From Myxococcota bacterium (lineage in GTDB: Bacteria > Myxococcota > JAJVIH01), in NCBI GenBank assembly GCA_022072125.1, contig JAJVIH010000054.1, positions 20,368-84,367 on the forward strand: a stretch of 64,000 bases of DNA, given 5' to 3'. The first letter of the stretch is position 1, and every line of letters starts with the position of its first letter. Under the pieces are notes generated by a model that was not told the DNA's origin, made no database searches, and saw only the letters and a program-made list of their open reading frames with translations. Positions 5,378 through 63,804 of the stretch are shown piece by piece. The position numbers were made by a program, and so were the translations under genes.

Positions 5378-7549
5378 TCAACGCATGCGGATCCGGCGGC
5401 GCAGCGCCAGCGCCAGCAAGGCGGCGGCCAGAACCCACGGCGTCCTCCTGCTGGGCGCGGGCGCGGAAATTGCGCAGCCGCAACCTGAACCGCCAGGCGC
5501 GGTGGTCAGGGGAACGCCGGCGTCCGGCGCTGGGGAAGCGGTCTGTTTGCCCGCGCATTTCAGGGCGCCCGGGCAATCCGCGGAGGAAGAAAAACATTCA
5601 GCCAACGGTCCCGGATTGACCGCCTCTCCGGCGTTGGCGCACAACTCGGCGCAATTCAGCGGCGCCTCGCAAGCAACATGTTTTCCGCAGGCTTCCTCGC
5701 AACCGCGATTGGCGGCGGGCGGAGAGTCCAGATCCGGCGTCCCGGCGTCTGGCTCCGCCGCATCCGCCGCTGTTCCCGGTGAGGCGTCGGAGGCCGGACC
5801 ATCGCCGGCCCCGGCGTCTGGCGGACTTTCGCTGATCACCACCACATGGGACGCCGGGAAAGAATCCGCCTTGCCGTCGTTGACGATCAGTTGAACCACC
5901 ACGTTGTTTTCCTTCTCCGATTCCGGGAACGCCAGATCGAGGAAAGGTCCGTCAAACGAGCCTTCATTGAAGGCGGTTCCAGACACCACCGACCACTTGT
6001 AGGTCAGCGGATCGCCATTGGGATCGGAGGACTCGACGCCATCCAGCGTCACCACTCCTCCAGGAGGAGCGTGCCCCGGGCCCTTGATCACCGCCACTGG
6101 AGGATCATTGATGGTGTCTAGCACCAGCACCCGGACCCGCGCCGGCGCGGAGGTCAGTTCGCCATCGGAGACTGTCAGTTCCAACACCAGCGCCACGGAA
6201 GCGTTGACCGATGGAGTCCGGATTTCCGGCGTGGGCGAGTTAAGGCCGCTCACCACGGCCGCCGGCCCGGAAATCTGCTTCCAGGAGAAAGTCAGGCGGT
6301 CCCCGTCCGGATCGAAGGAGCCGCGTCCGTCGAATTTGATGTCTGTCTGCTCCGGCGCGTCGAAGTCAATACCGGCGTTGGCCACGGGCGCGCGGTTGGG
6401 CGGGCGGCAGGTCCCGCGGACGCAAACCGTTCCGCTGGAGCACTGGTTGTCGGTCTGGCAGTTGCGTGAACAGACGGCGGCGGCGCACTGGAACGGCGCG
6501 CACTCCTGGCGGCTGGACTCCACGCATTCGCCGATTGAGTTGCAGACCTTCTCTCCAACCGCGACCGTGCCGTCACAGGCGGCGGCTCCGCAGGATTGTC
6601 CTTTGCGCGCGGGGCGGGTGGAGCATTTCCGGGCCGTTTCGTCGCAGAACCCCTCGATGCAAGGGTTTCCGCTGACGCCGCAACTCAGCGGTTCTCCACC
6701 CGCGCATACGCCGTCCTGGCATTTGTCCGACGAGGTGCAAAATTTTCCGTCGTCGCAGGAGGCGCCGTTGGCCCGGTTGGAGAGTTGGGTCTGGCTGGAT
6801 TCGGGCAGGCAGAATTTGCATCCCACGCTTCCCGGCACGTCGCCCTTGCGGTAGCAGCGGTTGTCAATCAGGCAGCGGTCGGACTTGATGGGATGCTCGC
6901 ATTTTCCGCCCAGGCAGACATCGCTGGTGCATTCAAACTGATCGGCGGCGCACGGGGATTGGTCCGCTTTTTTCGGATGATTACAGGAGCCGTTCTGGCA
7001 AATGTCCTCGGTGCAGGAGTCTCCATCGTCATTGCACGAGACCCCATTATTGCGGTTGGGATGGGCGCAGTTCCGGTTGTTGCACAGGTCATCGGTGCAG
7101 GGATTTCCGTCGTCCACGCACCGGGTGCCGTTGGGATGGTAGGCGCATCCGCCGGCCCCGTCGCAAACCCCGGTCGTACCGCAGGTCTGGGCTTTCTGTT
7201 CGGCGCATTCGTTGTCGGGATCCTGTCCGGAAGGGATATTGCCGCAGGTTCCCGTTTGTCCGCCCTTTTTGGAAGCCAGGCAGGAGACGCAGGTCCCATT
7301 GCAGGGGGTATTGCAGCAGACCCCCTCGACGCAGTTGCCGCTTTCGCACAGCGTAGCCACGGTGCAGGTGGCGCCGTTGGGCGACAATACCGGAAGGGGG
7401 CCCGGTCCCGGGTCGGGCGGAATATTGGCGACGCTCCAGTCCGGAAGGGTAAACACCATCCGTGGGCCGCTCATCGCCTGGGCGGCGTTGGACGCCAGCG
7501 CCAGGACCATCACTGACAAAATCAGCCTCATGATGTGTCGCATACGCAT
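5378..7549 (-). CDS. secreted Cys-rich repeat protein with PKD/Ig-like domains and MYXO-CTERM-like C-terminal sorting signal
   Basis: Start at MRMRHIMRLILSVMVLALASNAAQA (signal peptide); many C-x-DDGNPCT-like Cys repeats; two PKD-like segments (DPDGD..T..W); C-terminus GCGCAIS + hydrophobic stretch + RRRIRMR. Confidence 0.75.
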   Translation of the reverse strand: MRMRHIMRLILSVMVLALASNAAQAMSGPRMVFTLPDWSVANIPPDPGPGPLPVLSPNGATCTVATLCESGNCVEGVCCNTPCNGTCVSCLASKKGGQTGTCGNIPSGQDPDNECAEQKAQTCGTTGVCDGAGGCAYHPNGTRCVDDGNPCTDDLCNNRNCAHPNRNNGVSCNDDGDSCTEDICQNGSCNHPKKADQSPCAADQFECTSDVCLGGKCEHPIKSDRCLIDNRCYRKGDVPGSVGCKFCLPESSQTQLSNRANGASCDDGKFCTSSDKCQDGVCAGGEPLSCGVSGNPCIEGFCDETARKCSTRPARKGQSCGAAACDGTVAVGEKVCNSIGECVESSRQECAPFQCAAAVCSRNCQTDNQCSSGTVCVRGTCRPPNRAPVANAGIDFDAPEQTDIKFDGRGSFDPDGDRLTFSWKQISGPAAVVSGLNSPTPEIRTPSVNASVALVLELTVSDGELTSAPARVRVLVLDTINDPPVAVIKGPGHAPPGGVVTLDGVESSDPNGDPLTYKWSVVSGTAFNEGSFDGPFLDLAFPESEKENNVVVQLIVNDGKADSFPASHVVVISESPPDAGAGDGPASDASPGTAADAAEPDAGTPDLDSPPAANRGCEEACGKHVACEAPLNCAELCANAGEAVNPGPLAECFSSSADCPGALKCAGKQTASPAPDAGVPLTTAPGGSGCGCAISAPAPSRRTPWVLAAALLALALRRRIRMR

Positions 7550-48970: not shown

Positions 48971-49858
48971 TCAAAAGCGCGCCGCCAGCAATACCAGGCT
49001 GTTGCCCGCGGGACCCCATTCCCTGCCCCATCGGCCGGCGGGAAGCGGCAGACGGCTCACCGCGGCCAATGGCGCGCGGCGGATCAGGCCGCCGTATCCG
49101 GCTGGCGCGCCGGAATACCAGTTCCAGAACCGGAATCCGGCGCTTTCCACCAACCGCTTCAACACCCGCGGACGGAAATGGTTGAGGTGGCTGGGCGGCG
49201 TGAACAGGCCGTATTTCCAGCGGGCGCCGCTGAGTTGGAGGGCGCGCAGTTTGAGCAGATGAAAATTCATGTTGGGGACACGGATCAGGAGGCATCCGCC
49301 CTCGACCAGCAGGCGGTGGGCGGCGTCAAGCGCATCGCGGAAATCCGGCAAATGCTCGAAGCTGTCGAGGAAACACACCGCTTCGTATTCCGATGACTCT
49401 CCAATGTCTTCGATGATTCCCTGAATCGCGCGGACCCCCGGGATGGTTTTGCACCGGGCGATGCAGGCGGCGGAGACATCCACCCCTGTCATGCGGAAAC
49501 CGCGCGCGGCGCCCTGGGTCAGGAATCCGCCATGGCCGCACCCAGCGTCGAGGATACGATCGCCAGGCTCAAGCCCGAACTCTTCCAGCAGGTCCAGCGC
49601 CTGCTCAAAAGCCTGGGACTTGGAGCGCCCCCAGGCTTTGGCCTCCTCGTCGCCGCCCCGGAAATAGGACTGGTTGTAGTATTCCGCCAGTTGCTGATCG
49701 TCTGGAACCGGAAAGGTGGTGATGAAGCCGCACGCGGGACAATCCAGGATCTGGTAGCCATCCTCGCGGGTCAGAAAAATGAATGGCCCCGGCCCGCCGC
49801 ATGCGCGGCAGGGCGGGAAAGGACGCGGAACATCCCTCAATGCAATGGCTTGGCTCAC
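48971..49858 (-). CDS. class I SAM-dependent methyltransferase with N-terminal zinc ribbon
   Basis: GTG start at 49858 overlapping flippase stop (GTGA) preferred over ATG 49948, which would overlap the flippase by about 90 bp; CRAC..CPAC ribbon; motif I LDAGCGHGGF. Confidence 0.7.
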   Translation of the reverse strand: MSQAIALRDVPRPFPPCRACGGPGPFIFLTREDGYQILDCPACGFITTFPVPDDQQLAEYYNQSYFRGGDEEAKAWGRSKSQAFEQALDLLEEFGLEPGDRILDAGCGHGGFLTQGAARGFRMTGVDVSAACIARCKTIPGVRAIQGIIEDIGESSEYEAVCFLDSFEHLPDFRDALDAAHRLLVEGGCLLIRVPNMNFHLLKLRALQLSGARWKYGLFTPPSHLNHFRPRVLKRLVESAGFRFWNWYSGAPAGYGGLIRRAPLAAVSRLPLPAGRWGREWGPAGNSLVLLAARF

Positions 49859-51300
49859 GTGCTGCTCTTCCTCCGGTTCAGTGCGTACCGGAGCGCCAGC
49901 ATATCCTCGTGCGTGATGATGCGGAAGATCGGCAACGCCAGGGCCCACGACGCGAGACCAGCGAAGGCCAGCGCCAGCGGGTGGACTGCTCCCGCATCAT
50001 GCAACCGCCAACCTGCGAAGGCGATGGCCGCGCCCGCCAACAGACCGGGGAGAACCTGCGCGGCGGCGGCGGATTTGGTCATTCCGCCGGGAAGGACGGA
50101 CCAGAACACCGCTAGCACCACCACCTCGGTGATGGCCGTGCAGGCGGCGACTGCTTCCGGTCCGGCGTACGGGATCAGCGCGGTCTTGAGCAGGATATCC
50201 GCGGCCACGCGCACGATCATGAGAATGCTGGCCAGCCGTTCGCGCTTGAGGGCGACCAGTGTGAAGAGCAGGACATCGTTGATGAACACGAAAGGAACCG
50301 CTACCCCAAACCACGCGAGAAACACCGGCGCGCTGCTCCAGGGACCGCCGAAAAACAGGTCAATCCACCCGCGCGCCCCGGCGATCATCACCACCGCGCC
50401 CGCTACGCCCGGCAACAGCGCCGCCTTCAGCGCCAGGCGCAATGCGCCGGTGATATCCTCTCCGCGCGCGGCCAGGCTGGAGAGAATTGGAAACAACGCG
50501 CCGGTGATAATGAGCGAGATGGCGTATCCGCCTTCAAACAGGCGCGCCGCCATGCCATATTGGCCGATGATCCCATCTGGCGTGTTCATCGCCTTGAGCA
50601 GGATGGGGTCGCTGCGCAGGTAGAACAGCGTGAACATGGTGGTCGCCGCGACGGCGGTGATGTTCCGCCACGAGCGCGGCCAGCGGAACCAGTCGGGCGC
50701 GCGCAGTCCGGGAAAGCGGCCTTGCAGGGAGCGGGCCATCCACAGGGCCCCGGCGGTGTTGGCGATGGCCATGCCGGCGACCGCGTGGGTGGCGGTGCGG
50801 AACAGGAGCAGCCCCGCGGCGCCGCCCGCCAGCATGAGCAGCCGTCCCAGCGTGCGGTTGCGCAGGCCCGAGCGGAAATTCTCCACGCCGCTGTCCGCCG
50901 CGATGACAAACTCGATCAACAGGTTGGCGGCCATGTGCAGGATCATCCACCACGCCAGCACCCGTTCCTCCGCGCCCGCATCCCATGCCGAAATCACCAG
51001 CGCCGCCAGGCAGGATGACCACGCGATCAACCAAAATTTCGCGCCGCTCATCTGCCGCAGCGCCGCCAGCCGCCCGTCTGGATTCGAGGCCAACTGCCTC
51101 ACCAGCAGCGTGTTGGCTCCCGCATCGCCGAGTATGGCGAACATGGCGGCGAATCCCTGGGCGAAGGAAATTTTCCCGAACGCGGCGTCTCCCAGAATGC
51201 GCGTGGTCATCAGCGCCAGCACCAGCGACGCGAGGCGGGCCAATCCCTCCGCGATGGCGCGGAACCACAGGTTGCCGGCGGCGCGCTGGTGAAGGTTCAT
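49855..51300 (-). CDS. polysaccharide/oligosaccharide flippase (MOP/Wzx-like)
   Basis: Start at ATG 51300 (MNLHQRAAGNLWF) directly after the GT4 stop; about 12 predicted TM helices typical of polysaccharide biosynthesis transporters. Confidence 0.7.
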   Translation of the reverse strand: MNLHQRAAGNLWFRAIAEGLARLASLVLALMTTRILGDAAFGKISFAQGFAAMFAILGDAGANTLLVRQLASNPDGRLAALRQMSGAKFWLIAWSSCLAALVISAWDAGAEERVLAWWMILHMAANLLIEFVIAADSGVENFRSGLRNRTLGRLLMLAGGAAGLLLFRTATHAVAGMAIANTAGALWMARSLQGRFPGLRAPDWFRWPRSWRNITAVAATTMFTLFYLRSDPILLKAMNTPDGIIGQYGMAARLFEGGYAISLIITGALFPILSSLAARGEDITGALRLALKAALLPGVAGAVVMIAGARGWIDLFFGGPWSSAPVFLAWFGVAVPFVFINDVLLFTLVALKRERLASILMIVRVAADILLKTALIPYAGPEAVAACTAITEVVVLAVFWSVLPGGMTKSAAAAQVLPGLLAGAAIAFAGWRLHDAGAVHPLALAFAGLASWALALPIFRIITHEDMLALRYALNRRKSST

Positions 51301-52421
51301 TTCGCCAGATCCCGCCAAATCCGCTCCACGCCGTCCGCCATGGCCTGCAGGGAAAAACGCTCTCGTGCAATGACCCGGGCGCTTTCGCCCATGGTCTCGC
51401 GGAGCGCGGGATCCCGGATCAATCGTTCCAGGTGACGGGCGAGTTCTTCCGCACAGCCGGGCCGCGACAGCAGACCCGTCCGTTCATGCGTCACCGCCTC
51501 CGGAACGCCGGCGATCCGGCTGGCCGCCACGGGCAGACCCGCCATCATTGCTTCCAGAATGCTGATCGGCAACCCCTCGCCGCTGACGGATGGGAAGACA
51601 AACACATCCGCGGCGCGCATCAATGCGGGAATATCGTCGCGCCAGCCGGTCAGGCGCACGCGGGTGCGCGCGCCGGGATCGGGCTGTTTGAGCAGTTCCC
51701 GGGATCGGGCCGCGAAGTCATGGCTTCCCCCGGCGATGATCAGCCATGGATCAAGGCCGCGATCATGCAGAAGTTGGAAGGAACGCATCAACACATCATG
51801 CCCTTTCGCGGGGATCAGCTTGCCGGCCGACAGCAGAACCGCCGCGTTCTCCGGAATTCCCAGCGTTGCGCGTATGGACTTGCGCGCGGAGTCCGGAGCG
51901 GGTTGCTCCGGAACTCCGTAGGGAACCACCACGGTTTTCTCCGGAACGCCCGGGACATGGCGGTAGGCGTCGCGCGCGGCCTGGCAGCAGGCGATGACGC
52001 GCGAAGCCCGGTTCAACAGCCGGCGATCCACCCGGTTTTGCCGGGTGAAGACATTGTGCAGCGTCCACACCAGGGGAGTGGAAGGCGGCGTGGCTTCCGC
52101 GGCGTATTTCATGGCGTAGAAGGCGTTGGCGTGGACGATGGCGGGGGCCGTTTCGCGAATGAGTTCGTGGAGCCGTCTCACGCCCTTGCCGGAAACCCAG
52201 GGCAGGTGATTGACGCGGAAGGGCAGGGCGTCAAACTCCAGCGGAATGACTTCCACGCCCTGCGCCCGCGCCCGCTTCTCCATTTCGCCGCCGGGCGGAC
52301 ACGCCAGCACGTGCTTCCAGCGCGGGGGAGGCAGCGCGGCGCACAGGCGCAGCATCGCCATCTGCCCTCCCGAAACCCACGGAAACGGGTCCAGCCACAG
52401 AATCACCGGAGATTGGCTCAC
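51297..52421 (-). CDS. GT4-family glycosyltransferase
   Basis: GT-B C-terminal motif ..VFVFPSVSGEGLPISILEAMMAGLPVAAS..; start overlaps recD2 stop. Confidence 0.85.
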   Translation of the reverse strand: MSQSPVILWLDPFPWVSGGQMAMLRLCAALPPPRWKHVLACPPGGEMEKRARAQGVEVIPLEFDALPFRVNHLPWVSGKGVRRLHELIRETAPAIVHANAFYAMKYAAEATPPSTPLVWTLHNVFTRQNRVDRRLLNRASRVIACCQAARDAYRHVPGVPEKTVVVPYGVPEQPAPDSARKSIRATLGIPENAAVLLSAGKLIPAKGHDVLMRSFQLLHDRGLDPWLIIAGGSHDFAARSRELLKQPDPGARTRVRLTGWRDDIPALMRAADVFVFPSVSGEGLPISILEAMMAGLPVAASRIAGVPEAVTHERTGLLSRPGCAEELARHLERLIRDPALRETMGESARVIARERFSLQAMADGVERIWRDLAK

Positions 52422-54670
52422 GCTTCGCCGTCCCGGTTGTCGCGCAGAGCGCCGCGAATGCGATCCGCCAGGGCGGAATAGCGCTCGCGCACCGCGTTGT
52501 TGCGCACCGCCATGCCGATGGCCTTTTCCTGGCCAATCAGCACCACCAGTTTTTTGCCGCGTGTGATCGCCGTGTACAGCAGGTTGCGCTGTAGCATCAT
52601 GTAGTGCTGCGTGAACAGCGGCGTGATCACGGCGGGGTATTCGCTGCCCTGGCTCTTGTGTACGGTGATGGCGTAAGCCAGCATCAGGTTGCCGGTGTCA
52701 TCCTTGTGATAGCGGGACTCGCGGTCGCCGAAACGCACGATAATCTCCTTCTTCGGCGCGTCCCAGCCCACGATGCGGCCCACGTCGCCGTTGAAGACTT
52801 CGCGGTCGTAATCGTTGCGGATCTGCATCACCTTGTCGCCCAGCCGGAATTCAAATTCCCCGCGCTTCAGCAGGGGATCCCCCGGATTCAGTTCGGCCTG
52901 CAGCACGCGGTTCAGGTTTTCCGCGCCCACGGCGCCCCGGTGCATGGGAACCAGCACCTGCACATCCTCGACGGGATCCAGTCCGAAGCGTTTGGGAATG
53001 CGCTCGCGCACCATCTGCAGAATGGCGGGAACGGCCTCCTCGGGGCTGTTGCGTGGAACGATGAAAAAATCCGATTCCCCGCCCGGCGGCGCCGAAACCG
53101 GAGGTTCGCCCGAGTTCACCCGGTGGGCGTTGACGACGATGTCCGACGAGCGCGCCTGACGGAATATCTCTCGCAACCTCACCACGCTCGCGGCGCCGGA
53201 AGCAATCAGATCCCGCAGGACATTTCCCGCTCCCACGCTGGGGAGTTGATCCACGTCGCCGACAAACACCACGCGCGCATTGGCGGGCAGGGCGCTCAGC
53301 AGCGCATACAACAACTGGATATCAATCATGGATGCTTCGTCCACGATCAACGCCCCGCATGACAGCGGGGAGCCCGCGTTGCGTCCGAACAGCCCCGGCG
53401 AATCGCCCGTGTTGTATTCCAGCAGACGGTGGATGGTCATCGCCTCGTGACCGGCGGATTCCGCCAGCCTGCGCGCCGCCCGGCCGGTGGGAGCGGCGAG
53501 GGCGATGTCCGTCTTGTTGTGTTTCAGGATGCGGACGATCCCGCGCATGATGGTGGTTTTGCCGGTGCCCGGTCCGCCCGTGATCACGGTGATGGGATGG
53601 GTCAGCGCCTCCCGGAGAGCCTCCCGCTGGAGCGTGGTCAACTCAATGTGCGCATCCTCCGCGTAACTGTTGATGGCGGCGTCCAGATCGCCCTGGATGC
53701 GCTCCGCTCCGCGCAGCTTGAGCAGTTCGGCGCAGGCCCCGGTCTCGGCGCGGTGCAGCGAACGCGCGTAAGCGGCTTCCTCGCCGCGGATTTTCTCAAT
53801 CACCACATGGGATTCCCGGCGCAGCGATTCCACCGCGGCTTCGATCAGCCCGGGCTCGACCTGAAGTTCCTGGATTCCGCGTTCAATCCATACGGAAACC
53901 GGCAAGTATACATGTCCTTCGTCGCCGGCGGTTTCAAGCTGGAAATGCATGAACGCGCGTATGCGGCGCGGATGTTTTTCGTCAATCCCCATCGAGCGCG
54001 CGATGCGATCGGCGGTTTTGAAGCCGACCCCGAACACGTCAAACGCCAGCACATAGGGATCTTCCCTGATTTTGTTGACGGTCTGTTCCCGGTAACGGGA
54101 GTAAATGCGGTGCGCGAGTCCGGGCGTGGCGCCGTGCGACATCAGGAATGTCATCACGCGGAGCACGCCCTGCTGCTCCATCAGGGATTCGTGGATGATC
54201 TTCGCCTTGCGATCGCTGATGCCTTCCACCCCGGTCAGCCGCGAAGGTTCGTTGATGATGATGTCCAGGGTGTCCATGCCGAAGGCGGCGACGAGCCGCT
54301 CCGCGTTTTTATCGCCCACGCCATCCACATTCGCGGAGAGAAAGCGGCGTACTCCCTCCAGGCTTTGATGTGACAGCGGCTGCACGGCGTCGGCGCGGAA
54401 CTGCCTGCCGTAGTTCTTGTCCTCGACCCAGCGGCCCTGGCATTCGATGTTCATGCCGGGGTCCAGGCCCGCGAGCACGCCCACCACGGTGACTTCCTCG
54501 CCGCCGGTGATCATACGGACCACCGCGAATCCGCTGGCCGCGTTGGCAAAGACCACCCGCCGGACCTCGCCGCGCAGGGTCTCGGTCTGGTTGGCGTCCT
54601 GGTTCTGGAAAAGTGGTCCGGCGCGTGCGCTCACGGCGCGCAGTGTGCGTTGGAAAATGGTCCCGCGCAA
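52418..54670 (-). CDS. recD2: RecD2-like SF1B DNA helicase
   Basis: N-terminal OB/HhH region; Walker [10 protein letters not shown]; Walker B LIVDEASM; motifs [13 protein letters not shown] and C-terminal [10 protein letters not shown]. Confidence 0.9.
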
Positions 54671-61040: not shown

Positions 61041-62090
61041 TCATGGGCAACGGTTGCCCGGTTTCAGGCAATAGCCGAATTCGCGTCCGCCGCTGGTGCT
61101 TTTGCAGCAGACTTCCCCGGATCCGCAGCAGGTATCCGAGCAGCGGTAGGCCGAGAACGTGCAGGTTAGTCCGCATTTGCCTGCGGAACAGGTGGCGTTG
61201 GAGACGTCCTTCCGTCCTTCCGGACACTTCTTTCCGCAGTCGCCACAGTGTTTCGGGTCGCGGCTGGTGTCCGTGCAGATATCTTCCCCTTCGGCGGATT
61301 TACAGAGTTTTTCCGTGGCCTCGCACTGGATTTTGCACACCCCGCTTTCGCAAACCGCCTCGCCGCCGCTTGCGCCGGCGTCACAGACCTTTCCACAGCC
61401 GCTGCAGTTGTTGGGATCGCTGCGGATATCCACGCAGCCGCCGTTGCAGACGGCGTGGCCAAAGGGGCATTCCGTGACGCATTTGCTATTCAGGCATTTG
61501 GCGGTTCCGCCGCCCGGTTGCTCACAGTAGGCGCCACAGAATCCGCAGTTGCCCGGATCGGTTGTGGTGTCCACGCAGCGGCCTTCGCACATGCTCATGG
61601 TTCCCTTGCACTTCAGGCCGCATCCGCCGGCGTTGCAGACCGCGTCGGCGTTGGGCGCGCCCGGGCATTTGAAGCCGCAGCTTCCGCAGTTCTCCGTATC
61701 GGTTTTCAGGTTGGCGCAGCCGCGCGGACAGGGGGTTTCGCCGCTCCGGCAATCGCCTCCGCCTCCGCCGGAATCCTGCGGTGGGGGAATGTCCGGAGAG
61801 GACAGATCACTTCCGCCGCCGGAGCGATCGGTTACGCCTGCGTCGGGGCATAAACCCTCGATCACGCAAACGCCGTTGCAGAGTTCAAATCCATCCGTGC
61901 AGGAGACGGGTTTTCCGCCCTGGTCGCCCAGGCTGGCGTCGGAGCCGCTGGCGCCGGTCCCGCCGCCGCTGGTGGAGCCGCCCGAGATAAACCCGCCCTT
62001 TTTAACGGCCTCCTCGCCGCCGCAAGCGTCCAGCGCCACCAGCAGGGCGCACAAACCCGTCAGCCGGAGCAGAAGCGATTTTGCAGTCAT
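61041..62090 (-). CDS. Cys-rich repeat lipoprotein (CGxCG-type repeats)
   Basis: Start at ATG 62090 (MTAKSLLLRLTGLCALLVALDAC, lipobox); Gly/Ser linker; about 8 repeats of D..NCGxCGxxC..G.C. Confidence 0.7.
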   Translation of the reverse strand: MTAKSLLLRLTGLCALLVALDACGGEEAVKKGGFISGGSTSGGGTGASGSDASLGDQGGKPVSCTDGFELCNGVCVIEGLCPDAGVTDRSGGGSDLSSPDIPPPQDSGGGGGDCRSGETPCPRGCANLKTDTENCGSCGFKCPGAPNADAVCNAGGCGLKCKGTMSMCEGRCVDTTTDPGNCGFCGAYCEQPGGGTAKCLNSKCVTECPFGHAVCNGGCVDIRSDPNNCSGCGKVCDAGASGGEAVCESGVCKIQCEATEKLCKSAEGEDICTDTSRDPKHCGDCGKKCPEGRKDVSNATCSAGKCGLTCTFSAYRCSDTCCGSGEVCCKSTSGGREFGYCLKPGNRCP

Positions 62091-62172
62091 GACAATCCCC
62101 TGAAATGATCGAGGCGTTCCCACGCGGAGGCCACATCATACTTGTTTTTGTTCAAAGCGCCACCGTCCGCGC

Positions 62173-63678
62173 CTATTCCATGCGATAAACATCCCATTGC
62201 CGGACGCCCACATCTATTTCGCAGACATCCCTGCTGATGACGAATTCAAAATGGGTTTCCCCATTCAGGTGGAGGGCGGACCAGATGAGGTTGGAGGATC
62301 CGCCGAAATTGTCGAAATTCTTGTTGCAGCGCCCCGCCGGCAGCCTGAATGGGCGGGGTCTCGCCTGGAATCCGCTCTCGCTGCCTTCATAAATATCCCA
62401 ACGGCTGACCCCAACCTCGCTGTCGCATTCATCACTGACCACCACCAACTCCGGAATAAGGTCGCAATTGATGGTGTTCAAGTGGTGCCTCAGGACGCTG
62501 GAAGGGTTCACGATCCGGTTGAATTTGGTGCTGCAGCGGGCAGGGGGAATGGTGAAGCGGCGTGGGGTGACGGTGAACCCCGCGGCGCCGCCGTTGTAGA
62601 CATCCCAATGCGTGTCGCCCACCTCAATCGAGCAATTCTCCGCGGTGACCACCAGATCGGGGCGGCGGTCATTGTTGAGGTTGAGCAGGACGTAATTCAG
62701 GTTGCCGCTGTTGGCGAGACGGTCCCATTTTCCGCCGCAACGCACGGGGGGCAGGGAGTACCGCGCGGGAACCATGGCGAAGCCATCCGGGCCGCCTGTG
62801 TAGACATCCCAGTGGGTTACGCCCAGGTTGGCGTCGCATTCATCGCCATGGACCACTAGGTCCGGAATGCCGTCCGCCGTCAGGTCGAACAGGCCGTAAT
62901 CCAGTTCGCCGGTGTTGGCGATGCGATCGAATCTGGTGTTGCAGCGCGCTGGTGGAATCTTGTACTTGCGTGGGACCGGACCGATTCCATCGCGCGAGCC
63001 ATTGTAGATATCCCAGAAGTCCTGTCCCACTTGCGGGTCGCAATCCTCGCGATGGACCACAATATCGGCGAAACGATCATTGTTCATGTCCAGCAAGACA
63101 TGCTTGGCGCCGCCACTGTAATGGAGATCAAAACTGGTGTTGCAGCGCGCCGGAGGGATTTTGAAGGTCCGCGGCCGCAGGGCGAAACCGCTGTCGAGGT
63201 TGTCATAGACATCCCAATGGCTGTTGACCATGGACTTGTCGCAATCATCCTTGCTGATCACCAGGTCCGGCAGTCCATCGGCGTTCCAGTCTTGCAGATG
63301 GTGGGTGACGCCCTCGCCCCGGCCTGCGATATTGTAAAAATTATCTCCGCAGCGGGCGGCCGGGATCGGAAAGTTCATGGGCCGGGCCGCCATTCCCTTT
63401 CCCAGGGCCGGGTTGCATTGCAAATCCGGGCCGCCGCCCCCTCCGCCGCCGGAATCTCCGCCGCCGGTGTCATGGTTTCCTCCGCCTTCTCCGTTTCCGC
63501 CACCGGAGTCGAAGGTTCCCCCGCCGCCGGAATCCGGCGCTCCCCCGCCGCCAGAACTTCCTCCGCCGGGAACAAACCCGCCTTGAGAAGGTTTTTCAGA
63601 TCCTCCGCACGCCATCATGGACAACGCGGAGATGGTCAGGGCGAACAGGCAGGACGGGTAAAAACAGGACCGGTTCAT
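62173..63678 (-). CDS. lipoprotein with six FG-GAP-like tandem repeats
   Basis: Start at ATG 63678 (MNRSCFYPSCLFALTISALSMMAC, lipobox); Gly-rich linker; six repeats of about 67 aa each with IPPARC, DxNxDGxPDLVV, DECD, HWDVY. Confidence 0.7.
   Translation of the reverse strand: MNRSCFYPSCLFALTISALSMMACGGSEKPSQGGFVPGGGSSGGGGAPDSGGGGTFDSGGGNGEGGGNHDTGGGDSGGGGGGGPDLQCNPALGKGMAARPMNFPIPAARCGDNFYNIAGRGEGVTHHLQDWNADGLPDLVISKDDCDKSMVNSHWDVYDNLDSGFALRPRTFKIPPARCNTSFDLHYSGGAKHVLLDMNNDRFADIVVHREDCDPQVGQDFWDIYNGSRDGIGPVPRKYKIPPARCNTRFDRIANTGELDYGLFDLTADGIPDLVVHGDECDANLGVTHWDVYTGGPDGFAMVPARYSLPPVRCGGKWDRLANSGNLNYVLLNLNNDRRPDLVVTAENCSIEVGDTHWDVYNGGAAGFTVTPRRFTIPPARCSTKFNRIVNPSSVLRHHLNTINCDLIPELVVVSDECDSEVGVSRWDIYEGSESGFQARPRPFRLPAGRCNKNFDNFGGSSNLIWSALHLNGETHFEFVISRDVCEIDVGVRQWDVYRME
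62176..63381 (-). repeat. six tandem coding repeats (about 200 bp each) within the FG-GAP-like lipoprotein gene
   Basis: Repeat units read at protein level (PxxFxIPPARC...HWDVY); DNA-level identity not computed. Confidence 0.55.
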
Positions 63679-63804
63679 GTGGGCATCCATACTCCCGGTC
63701 CGGCGGCGGGCGCAACCGCCGGGCGAGGATGCTCTTGACGGGCCGCCGGGCATGCGTCATGTGTCCCGCCCGGATTTTTTCTCTCACCGATGGACTGATT
63801 GATC

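Follow-up and report, generated by a model that had tools for sequence, protein, structure and literature searches.

A gene at positions 62173 to 63678 (minus strand) of a 64,000-nucleotide stretch of Myxococcota DNA, hereafter the window (GenBank assembly GCA_022072125.1, contig JAJVIH010000054.1, positions 20,368 to 84,367), raises the question of what an exported protein made of six cysteine-paired repeats is and what it could do in the cell envelope. An earlier note, made from the DNA alone, had proposed a lipoprotein composed of six FG-GAP-like repeats, suggestive of a disulfide-stapled propeller, and had not recognised a named family. We found that the gene encodes six genuine and ancient repeats of the FG-GAP/VCBS superfamily, which are predicted to form a closed six-bladed propeller, and that members of its subfamily are encoded next to a cysteine-rich protein in nearly all loci. 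The explanation that we favour, and consider reasonably probable as a whole, is a disulfide-stapled six-blade scaffold of the envelope that works with this Cys-rich partner. We regard the structural part of this explanation as very likely and put forward the functional part tentatively.

Six ancient repeats behind an export signal

The coding sequence, read from ATG, specifies 501 amino acids (aa). NCBI places the start at 63690 (four more codons, 505 aa), and the longest open reading frame (ORF) extends to 63753. A sequence search showed the product to be identical to the NCBI entry 'MAG: hypothetical protein GMKNLPBB_02825 [Myxococcota bacterium]'. Many plus-strand ORFs overlap the region and were treated as high-GC artefacts. 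The gene and its parts are as follows.

62173..63678, minus strand: coding sequence of the predicted six-bladed FG-GAP/VCBS-type propeller lipoprotein, 501 aa plus stop, from ATG
63607..63678, minus strand: signal peptide and lipobox, residues 1-24, ...ALSMMA-C24, read from the sequence
63418..63606, minus strand: Gly/Ser/Asp-rich flexible tether, residues 25-87, of varying length and composition among homologues
63385..63417, minus strand: N-terminal tail, residues 88-98, with Cys88, which is invariant in a 14-protein alignment
63178..63384, minus strand: repeat unit 1, residues 99-167, Cys110/Cys146, loop DWNADGLPD
62977..63177, minus strand: repeat unit 2, residues 168-234, Cys179/Cys213, loop DMNNDRFAD
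62773..62976, minus strand: repeat unit 3, residues 235-302, Cys246/Cys281, loop DLTADGIPD
62569..62772, minus strand: repeat unit 4, residues 303-370, Cys314/Cys349, loop NLNNDRRPD
62362..62568, minus strand: repeat unit 5, residues 371-439, Cys382/Cys418 and an extra Cys405, degenerate loop TINCDLIPE
62176..62361, minus strand: repeat unit 6, residues 440-501, Cys451/Cys486, Ca-type loop lost (HLNGETHFE)

By direct reading, the signal peptide has an arginine at position 3, a hydrophobic core, and the sequence S-M-M-A-C24, which conforms to the PROSITE PS51257-type lipobox rule. All close homologues carry lipoboxes of the LLAAC, LLAGC, or VVAAC type. Cys24 is the predicted lipidation site, and the protein is probably lipid-anchored; the lipoprotein signal that the earlier note had pointed out is thus present both here and throughout the family.

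The six units are 62-69 aa long and share 31-50% amino acid identity with each other. All 15 pairs of units matched significantly in BLASTP (E values from 3e-7 to 3e-23, 1-Mb search space), and the two cysteines within each unit are spaced by 34-36 residues. With these matches and with blade cysteines that are invariant in the family, the six tandem units with a Cys pair each are real. The motif strings listed in the earlier note were all recognisable, but they are an idealised consensus that is not exact in every unit. Units 2, 3, and 5 carry IPPARC exactly, and the remaining ones have IPAARC, LPPVRC, and LPAGRC instead; HWDVY occurs unaltered in units 1, 3, and 4; and the first four units have a canonical DxNxDGxPDLV loop, which has degenerated in unit 5 and disappeared from unit 6.

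The earlier note had also proposed a comparison of the repeats at the DNA level. This comparison detected neither homogenisation nor recent amplification. The units share 44-62% nucleotide identity and 31-57% identity at third codon positions, with a G+C content of 72% at third positions (GC3). DNA stretches that recur between units are at most 49 nt long, are 63-78% identical, are spaced by 201-207 nt, and cover the conserved motifs only. Tandem Repeats Finder (TRF) found no tandem DNA arrays in the propeller gene outside the Gly-linker region. We therefore rejected recent repeat amplification or gene conversion, given the 44-62% identity between units and the confinement of TRF arrays to the Gly linker. 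The repeats are ancient and have not been homogenised at the DNA level.

A closed six-bladed propeller is predicted

We built an AlphaFold2 (AF2) model of the protein from a 44-sequence alignment, assigned strands with DSSP, and searched for similar folds with Foldseek. The model has a predicted local distance difference test score (pLDDT) of 94.8, a predicted template modelling score (pTM) of 0.91, and 24 strands arranged 1+4x5+3, which predicts a closed propeller of six four-stranded blades, as the earlier note had suspected. All significant Foldseek matches are propellers, the best being the propeller of TcB; YesW and further catalytic propellers were among the weak matches only. A single-blade hidden Markov model (HMM) applied to 196 family members never counted more than six blades. 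The earlier note had named two outcomes that would speak against it, namely assignment of all repeats to a well-characterised family and prediction of a fold other than a propeller, and neither was seen.

DSSP applied to the repeat gave the order of elements within a blade. Strand 4 (R-x-F-x-I-P) comes first and is followed by a connection of ~18 residues that opens with P-x-R-C. Strand 1 (y-x-L-L-D-L) leads through the hairpin D-x-[DNT]-x-D-[GR]-x-x-D into strand 2 (D-L-V-V), and the blade ends with the 2-3 loop (D-x-C-D-x-x-V-G) and strand 3 (H-W-D-V-Y), from which G-F runs into the next strand 4. Unit 6 supplies strands 1-3 of the last blade, and the first strand of unit 1 (NFPI, residues 101-104) is available for completing it; this N-terminal strand is predicted to close the last blade (velcro closure). 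The hairpin between strands 1 and 2 follows the integrin-type Ca2+ pattern D/N-x-N/T-x-D-G/R-x-x-D in blades 1-4 and, judged by this pattern, is a likely Ca2+ site in these four blades.

Paired cysteines suggest one disulfide per blade

In 14 proteins of ~40% identity, the 12 blade cysteines and Cys88 never vary. From 196 family members we took the 298 blades that were fully covered and counted how often the cysteines occur together. One cysteine in each of the two loops (4-1 and 2-3) was present in 234 blades and neither in 64, while no blade had a single one. The number of cysteines per blade in the family is 0, 2, or 3, and never 1, and the mature propeller protein contains an even number of them (14). 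By standard topology, a four-stranded propeller blade has its 4-1 connection and its 2-3 loop on one face and its 1-2 hairpin on the other. Because the two loops share a face, both cysteines of a blade are positioned to bond on the top face. Invariance, co-occurrence, and loop location together most likely reflect an intrablade disulfide in each blade. The disulfide-stapled blades proposed in the earlier note thus gain support from the pairing pattern and the same-face location, which is indirect, and the bonds themselves stay putative.

The family also has an extra cysteine in the Ca-type loop of blade 5 or blade 6 (27 blades), in blade 6 in a few homologues. In the window protein this is Cys405, which sits in the blade-5 hairpin at a position that faces outward. 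A seventh disulfide between Cys88 and Cys405 is probable because both residues are expected on the bottom face. It would fix the N-terminal tail beside the velcro strand, and all 14 cysteines of the mature protein would then be paired.

Other branches of the family treat their cysteines differently. A sister subfamily (P0023, P0025, P0027-P0030, P0035, P0042, P0043, P0045) keeps the Cys pair, with the first cysteine ~12 residues later in the 4-1 connection. These proteins have one cysteine near the N-terminus and another just past the last strand (for example '...VYPLECGE'), a hint of a 'velcro' disulfide between the two ends. A third group (for example P0044, P0046-P0049, and P0051-P0056) has no blade cysteines.

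An unnamed branch of the FG-GAP/VCBS superfamily

Against PF13517 (FG-GAP_3) the full protein scores 27.0 bits and its mature part 28.5 bits, a marginal pass of the cut-off of 26.9, and against PF01839 (FG-GAP) it scores 21.3 bits, below the cut-off of 22.1. Among the 14 relatives of ~40% identity, 13 match PF13517 (best E value 3e-11), 10 match PF01839, and 6 match TcdB_toxin_midN, and the FG-GAP_3 score rises to 107 bits in more distant relatives. The kinship with FG-GAP/VCBS proteins asserted in the earlier note is solid because these relatives score far above the marginal match of the window protein. A sequence search with the propeller protein also found a TcB-like protein (P0057; E value 2.7e-4). 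TcB, PVL, and the integrins all fall into the VCBS supercluster, whose loop AB carries a DxDxDG motif (PMC8023676).

When 1.84 billion representatives were searched with a profile of the close subfamily, 979 proteins were retrieved, of which 403 had E values of 1e-30 or lower. As the profile finds only these 979 proteins, the propeller family is a compact and distinct branch rather than a set of generic VCBS repeats. Its members have about six blades, are mostly lipoproteins by their signals, and come largely from Myxococcota; where a source organism is given, it is assigned to Myxococcota, Polyangiaceae, Kofleriaceae, or 'Deltaproteobacteria'. Within the subfamily the window protein diverges most: it shares 37-44% identity with the other members, which are 43-78% identical among themselves (12 loci), and its Ca-type loops in blades 5 and 6 are more degenerate than the family consensus.

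The failure of the earlier note to recognise a named family was well founded. Neither Pfam nor NCBIfam has a dedicated model for the propeller protein (profile scan), and the sources label it hypothetical, while some relatives carry the annotation 'VCBS repeat-containing protein'. No significant sequence match was found in the PDB. A literature search on MXAN_6577, on Stig1 in myxobacteria, and on FG-GAP lipoproteins in Myxococcus returned nothing relevant. The fold family is well known, and the propeller protein represents a myxobacterial branch of it that has no name. The combination of a stand-alone six-blade lipoprotein, a putative disulfide per blade plus a tail staple, and an almost obligatory Stig1-like partner is undescribed in the libraries and literature searched.

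The propeller gene is linked to a gene for a Cys-rich protein

Downstream of the propeller gene lies a second gene in the same orientation.

62091..62172, minus strand: spacer between the propeller and partner genes, 82 bp
61041..62090, minus strand: partner gene, MXAN_6577-like/Stig1-like Cys-rich protein (NF041328, Stig1), 349 aa from ATG

The partner ORF is open as far as a GTG at 62123. As no terminator-like site was found in the 82-bp spacer, the two genes are probably co-transcribed. The partner matches NF041328 ('MXAN_6577-like cysteine-rich protein') with 118.6 bits (cut-off 100) and Pfam Stig1 with 44.1 bits (cut-off 24.1). It is composed of four D..NCG.CG..C modules and a CC-rich tail and contains ~45 cysteines. 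Its AF2 model (pLDDT 92.5) predicts an elongated rod of stacked beta-hairpins. A fold search with this model gave no significant PDB match and only a faint EGF- or TNFR-like resemblance.

We asked how widely the gene pair is conserved. A search for related loci with a 4-sequence alignment, which was limited by its pattern, returned 3 genome and 5 metagenome loci. We examined 12 loci with propellers of 37-78% identity, and in 11 of them a partner-type protein is encoded next to the propeller, on the same strand in 10 cases and convergently in one. The partner is absent from all four loci of more distant propeller subfamilies, and its linkage is therefore specific to the P-x-R-C subfamily. We found no other conserved neighbours of the propeller gene in the loci examined and no fusions of the propeller with the partner domain among long family members. 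An open frame of 903 codons upstream in one locus (L006) was considered as a gene fusion and rejected as an artefact of (GC)n and (CA)n dinucleotide repeats (L006 6537-6740).

Three distant Stig1-like Cys-rich homologues were checked. Two of them, in L010 and in L009 (Labilithrix luteola, CP012333), adjoin unrelated propeller-like repeat lipoproteins; the third, in L012, has no propeller-like neighbour. The neighbouring repeat lipoproteins are encoded at 6206-7543 in L010 and at 6173-7381 and 7378-8676 in L009. One of them has ~7 copies of 'FDGRY.YF.P...V.R.DT', while in the others the repeat is 'D.WAVG..G...H.DG..W', and an RCC1 propeller comes next. There may be a general theme in Myxococcota in which a Cys-rich rod accompanies a propeller lipoprotein.

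A proposed role in the cell envelope and its alternatives

We propose that the protein is exported and probably lipid-anchored via Cys24, and that a Gly-rich tether of ~60 residues would carry the closed six-bladed propeller. With six disulfide staples on one face and up to four or five Ca2+ hairpins on the opposite face, the resulting scaffold would be very rigid and non-enzymatic. The most variable residues are located on the top face between the invariant staples, and the top face is the ligand face in integrins and many propellers. In the envelope of myxobacterial cells the propeller could serve as a platform for binding; it may form a complex there with the probably co-transcribed, rod-like MXAN_6577/Stig1-like lipoprotein and act as a receptor or adhesion-type module. 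The complex with the Cys-rich rod is proposed because their co-inheritance is specific and conserved. A bolder version would make the propeller and the EGF-like Cys-rich rod an obligate two-lipoprotein envelope receptor, a loose analogue of an integrin head on a Cys-rich stalk, and maybe part of a wider undescribed myxobacterial theme in which, as the pattern in L009 and L010 suggests, the Cys-rich rod would be a generic adaptor or ligand of propeller lipoproteins, possibly for cell-cell or prey recognition; we consider this version distinctly unlikely.

Several observations weigh against a Ca2+-bearing scaffold that works with an anchored partner. The locus L001 of a close homologue lacks the partner gene. 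The signal peptide of the partner has an atypical lipobox (ALDA-C) with an aspartate at position -2, and its anchoring is uncertain for this reason. Most Ca-type loops are degenerate in one family member (P0011), and the family can therefore do without Ca2+ binding. Finally, recurrent weak or sub-threshold matches to PliI and XAC2610 would also fit a role as inhibitor.

In that role the protein would inhibit peptidoglycan hydrolases or lysozyme in the manner of PliI, X-Tfi(XAC2610), or Tsi1, which block the active site of an enzyme with their 2-3 loop; its own six stapled 2-3 loops would shield the predator's wall from lytic enzymes. PliI (PF16743) is matched by 9 of the 14 close relatives at E values up to 0.01 (best 7e-8) and by one distant relative with 49.7 bits (cut-off 27), and XAC2610_fam (NF047539, NCBIfam) matches residues 127-166 of the propeller protein with an E value of 0.006; these weak matches cover the same region of hairpin plus strand. 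XAC2610 is likewise a lipoprotein, its topology is propeller-like, and it has a Ca2+ loop and inhibits its target via the 2-3 loop (PMC10933484); PliI, XAC2610, and Tsi1 share with the window protein a periplasmic or lipoprotein nature, an all-beta structure, propeller-like topology, and a Ca2+ hairpin (PMC10933484). However, the three are small partial propellers (~120-270 aa), found beside a hydrolase or directed against one, whereas a full closed propeller is predicted here and no cognate enzyme gene was found: none of the 12 loci has a hydrolase or effector gene adjoining the propeller, and the conserved neighbour is the Cys-rich lipoprotein. The window protein also stays far below the cut-offs of PliI (12.8 versus 27 bits) and XAC2610_fam (17.1 versus 35 bits), the matched stretch is the Ca hairpin common to all FG-GAP blades, sequence matches to PDB entries 3OD9 and 4QTQ have E values of 0.67 or worse, and the 2-3 loop is nearly invariant over blades and orthologues, unlike specificity loops. 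A distant relative, P0025, is encoded downstream of a toxin-like protein of 1611 aa, but this toxin is of the nuclease type and not a wall hydrolase. On balance we hold inhibition to be decidedly unlikely. A stand-alone Ca2+-dependent lectin is also unlikely, though worth weighing; its interblade pockets would bind exopolysaccharide, the prey wall, or sugars of the N-acetylglucosamine (GlcNAc) type as in PVL or the tachylectins, and the partner would be unrelated or accessory. Several multivalent lectins belong to the VCBS supercluster (PMC8023676), and six near-identical scaffolds could provide six repeated sites. Yet the identity to PVL is merely 13-15%, we identified no PVL sugar-binding residues, and a lectin would leave unexplained why the Cys-rich partner is so tightly linked in this one subfamily. 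PVL also differs in having seven blades and in being cytoplasmic or secreted, and it is not known to carry disulfide staples.

Two further explanations concern the chemistry of the cysteines and the company that the fold keeps. With 12 invariant cysteines on one face of the propeller, ~45 in the partner, and MopE-type metal-binding motifs in some distant relatives (P0190), the cysteines could be ligands of Zn, Cu, or Fe, and the Cys-rich pair a metal-binding or redox module. This is very improbable given that both proteins carry signal peptides for export to an oxidising compartment, that the cysteine count is even, with strict pairs per blade and no His or Cys clusters, and that whole subfamilies without cysteines retain the fold, as would be expected of optional structural staples. 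That the best structural match is the TcB propeller, with YesW and other catalytic propellers among the weak Foldseek matches, would fit an enzyme or toxin component from the periphery of the VCBS proteins, either a polysaccharide lyase or dehydratase (YesW, AUDH) or a TcB-like cocoon gate. Such a function seems extremely improbable, since the protein consists of the propeller and its tether only, no catalytic family was matched in Pfam or NCBIfam, PADLOC returned nothing, and SpvB, RHS, and TcC domains are absent from the protein and from neighbouring genes.

Comparison with known propeller systems

The TcB propeller is six-bladed (PMC6795518), and the propeller fold alone is common to the window protein and TcB (TcdB2/TcdB1; PDB entries 6SUE, 6H6F, and 6L7I). 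In TcB, the propeller is one domain inside a protein of at least ~1450 aa; it gates the RHS cocoon, docks on TcA, and partly unfolds in doing so. In the window protein, by contrast, it is the whole mature protein, is predicted to be lipid-anchored, and has a putative disulfide in each blade, which would oppose partial unfolding in the TcB style. The test for a TcB system gave no SpvB or RHS domains in the propeller protein and no SpvB, RHS, TcA, or TcC genes nearby.

The propellers of integrin-alpha and PVL are seven-bladed, whereas the window protein has six repeats and 24 predicted strands, which argues against the integrin type, and its identity to these propellers is 13-18%. It also has neither the thigh/calf nor the transmembrane domains of integrin-alpha, and its family is marked by motifs of its own (P-x-R-C, D-x-C-D, and H-W-D-V-Y). 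Uncharacterised bacterial VCBS/FG-GAP_3 proteins have been described as secreted hypothetical proteins with a presumed role in biomolecular interactions (Pereira and Lupas 2021, PMC8023676). These proteins likewise contain VCBS-type blades, and the window family is set apart from them as a compact branch.

If the favoured explanation is true, Myxococcota possess a compact unnamed family (~400 clusters at E values of 1e-30 or lower) of stand-alone six-bladed propellers that are hyper-stabilised by one disulfide in each blade, and the co-inherited Cys-rich partner offers a testable functional lead. The family would help to annotate the envelopes of Myxococcota, in which such proteins are now 'hypothetical' or mislabelled. 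It would also illustrate from nature that disulfide stapling of a repeat fold can be optional, with sister subfamilies in which the first cysteine is shifted or cysteines are missing. The propeller finding challenges no established idea and so far touches on no open question of long standing.

Surrounding genes and further loci

A PADLOC scan detected nothing. Two plus-strand ORFs, at 49532-50620 (363 aa) and 50985-52478 (498 aa), have no Pfam match at E values of 1e-4 or lower, and their coding strand is uncertain because opposite-strand ORFs overlap them in this high-GC sequence. The other neighbours of the gene pair in the window are housekeeping genes, namely those for an HD hydrolase, a major facilitator superfamily (MFS) protein, urocanase, and RecD2.

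The distant relative P0025 is encoded in the locus L008 (1-7464, GCA_023954855.1) downstream of the 1611-aa protein, which has an Endonuclea_NS_2 domain, and the genes for a leucine-rich repeat (LRR) protein and two small unknowns lie between them. By analogy, the arrangement resembles a polymorphic-toxin and immunity locus.

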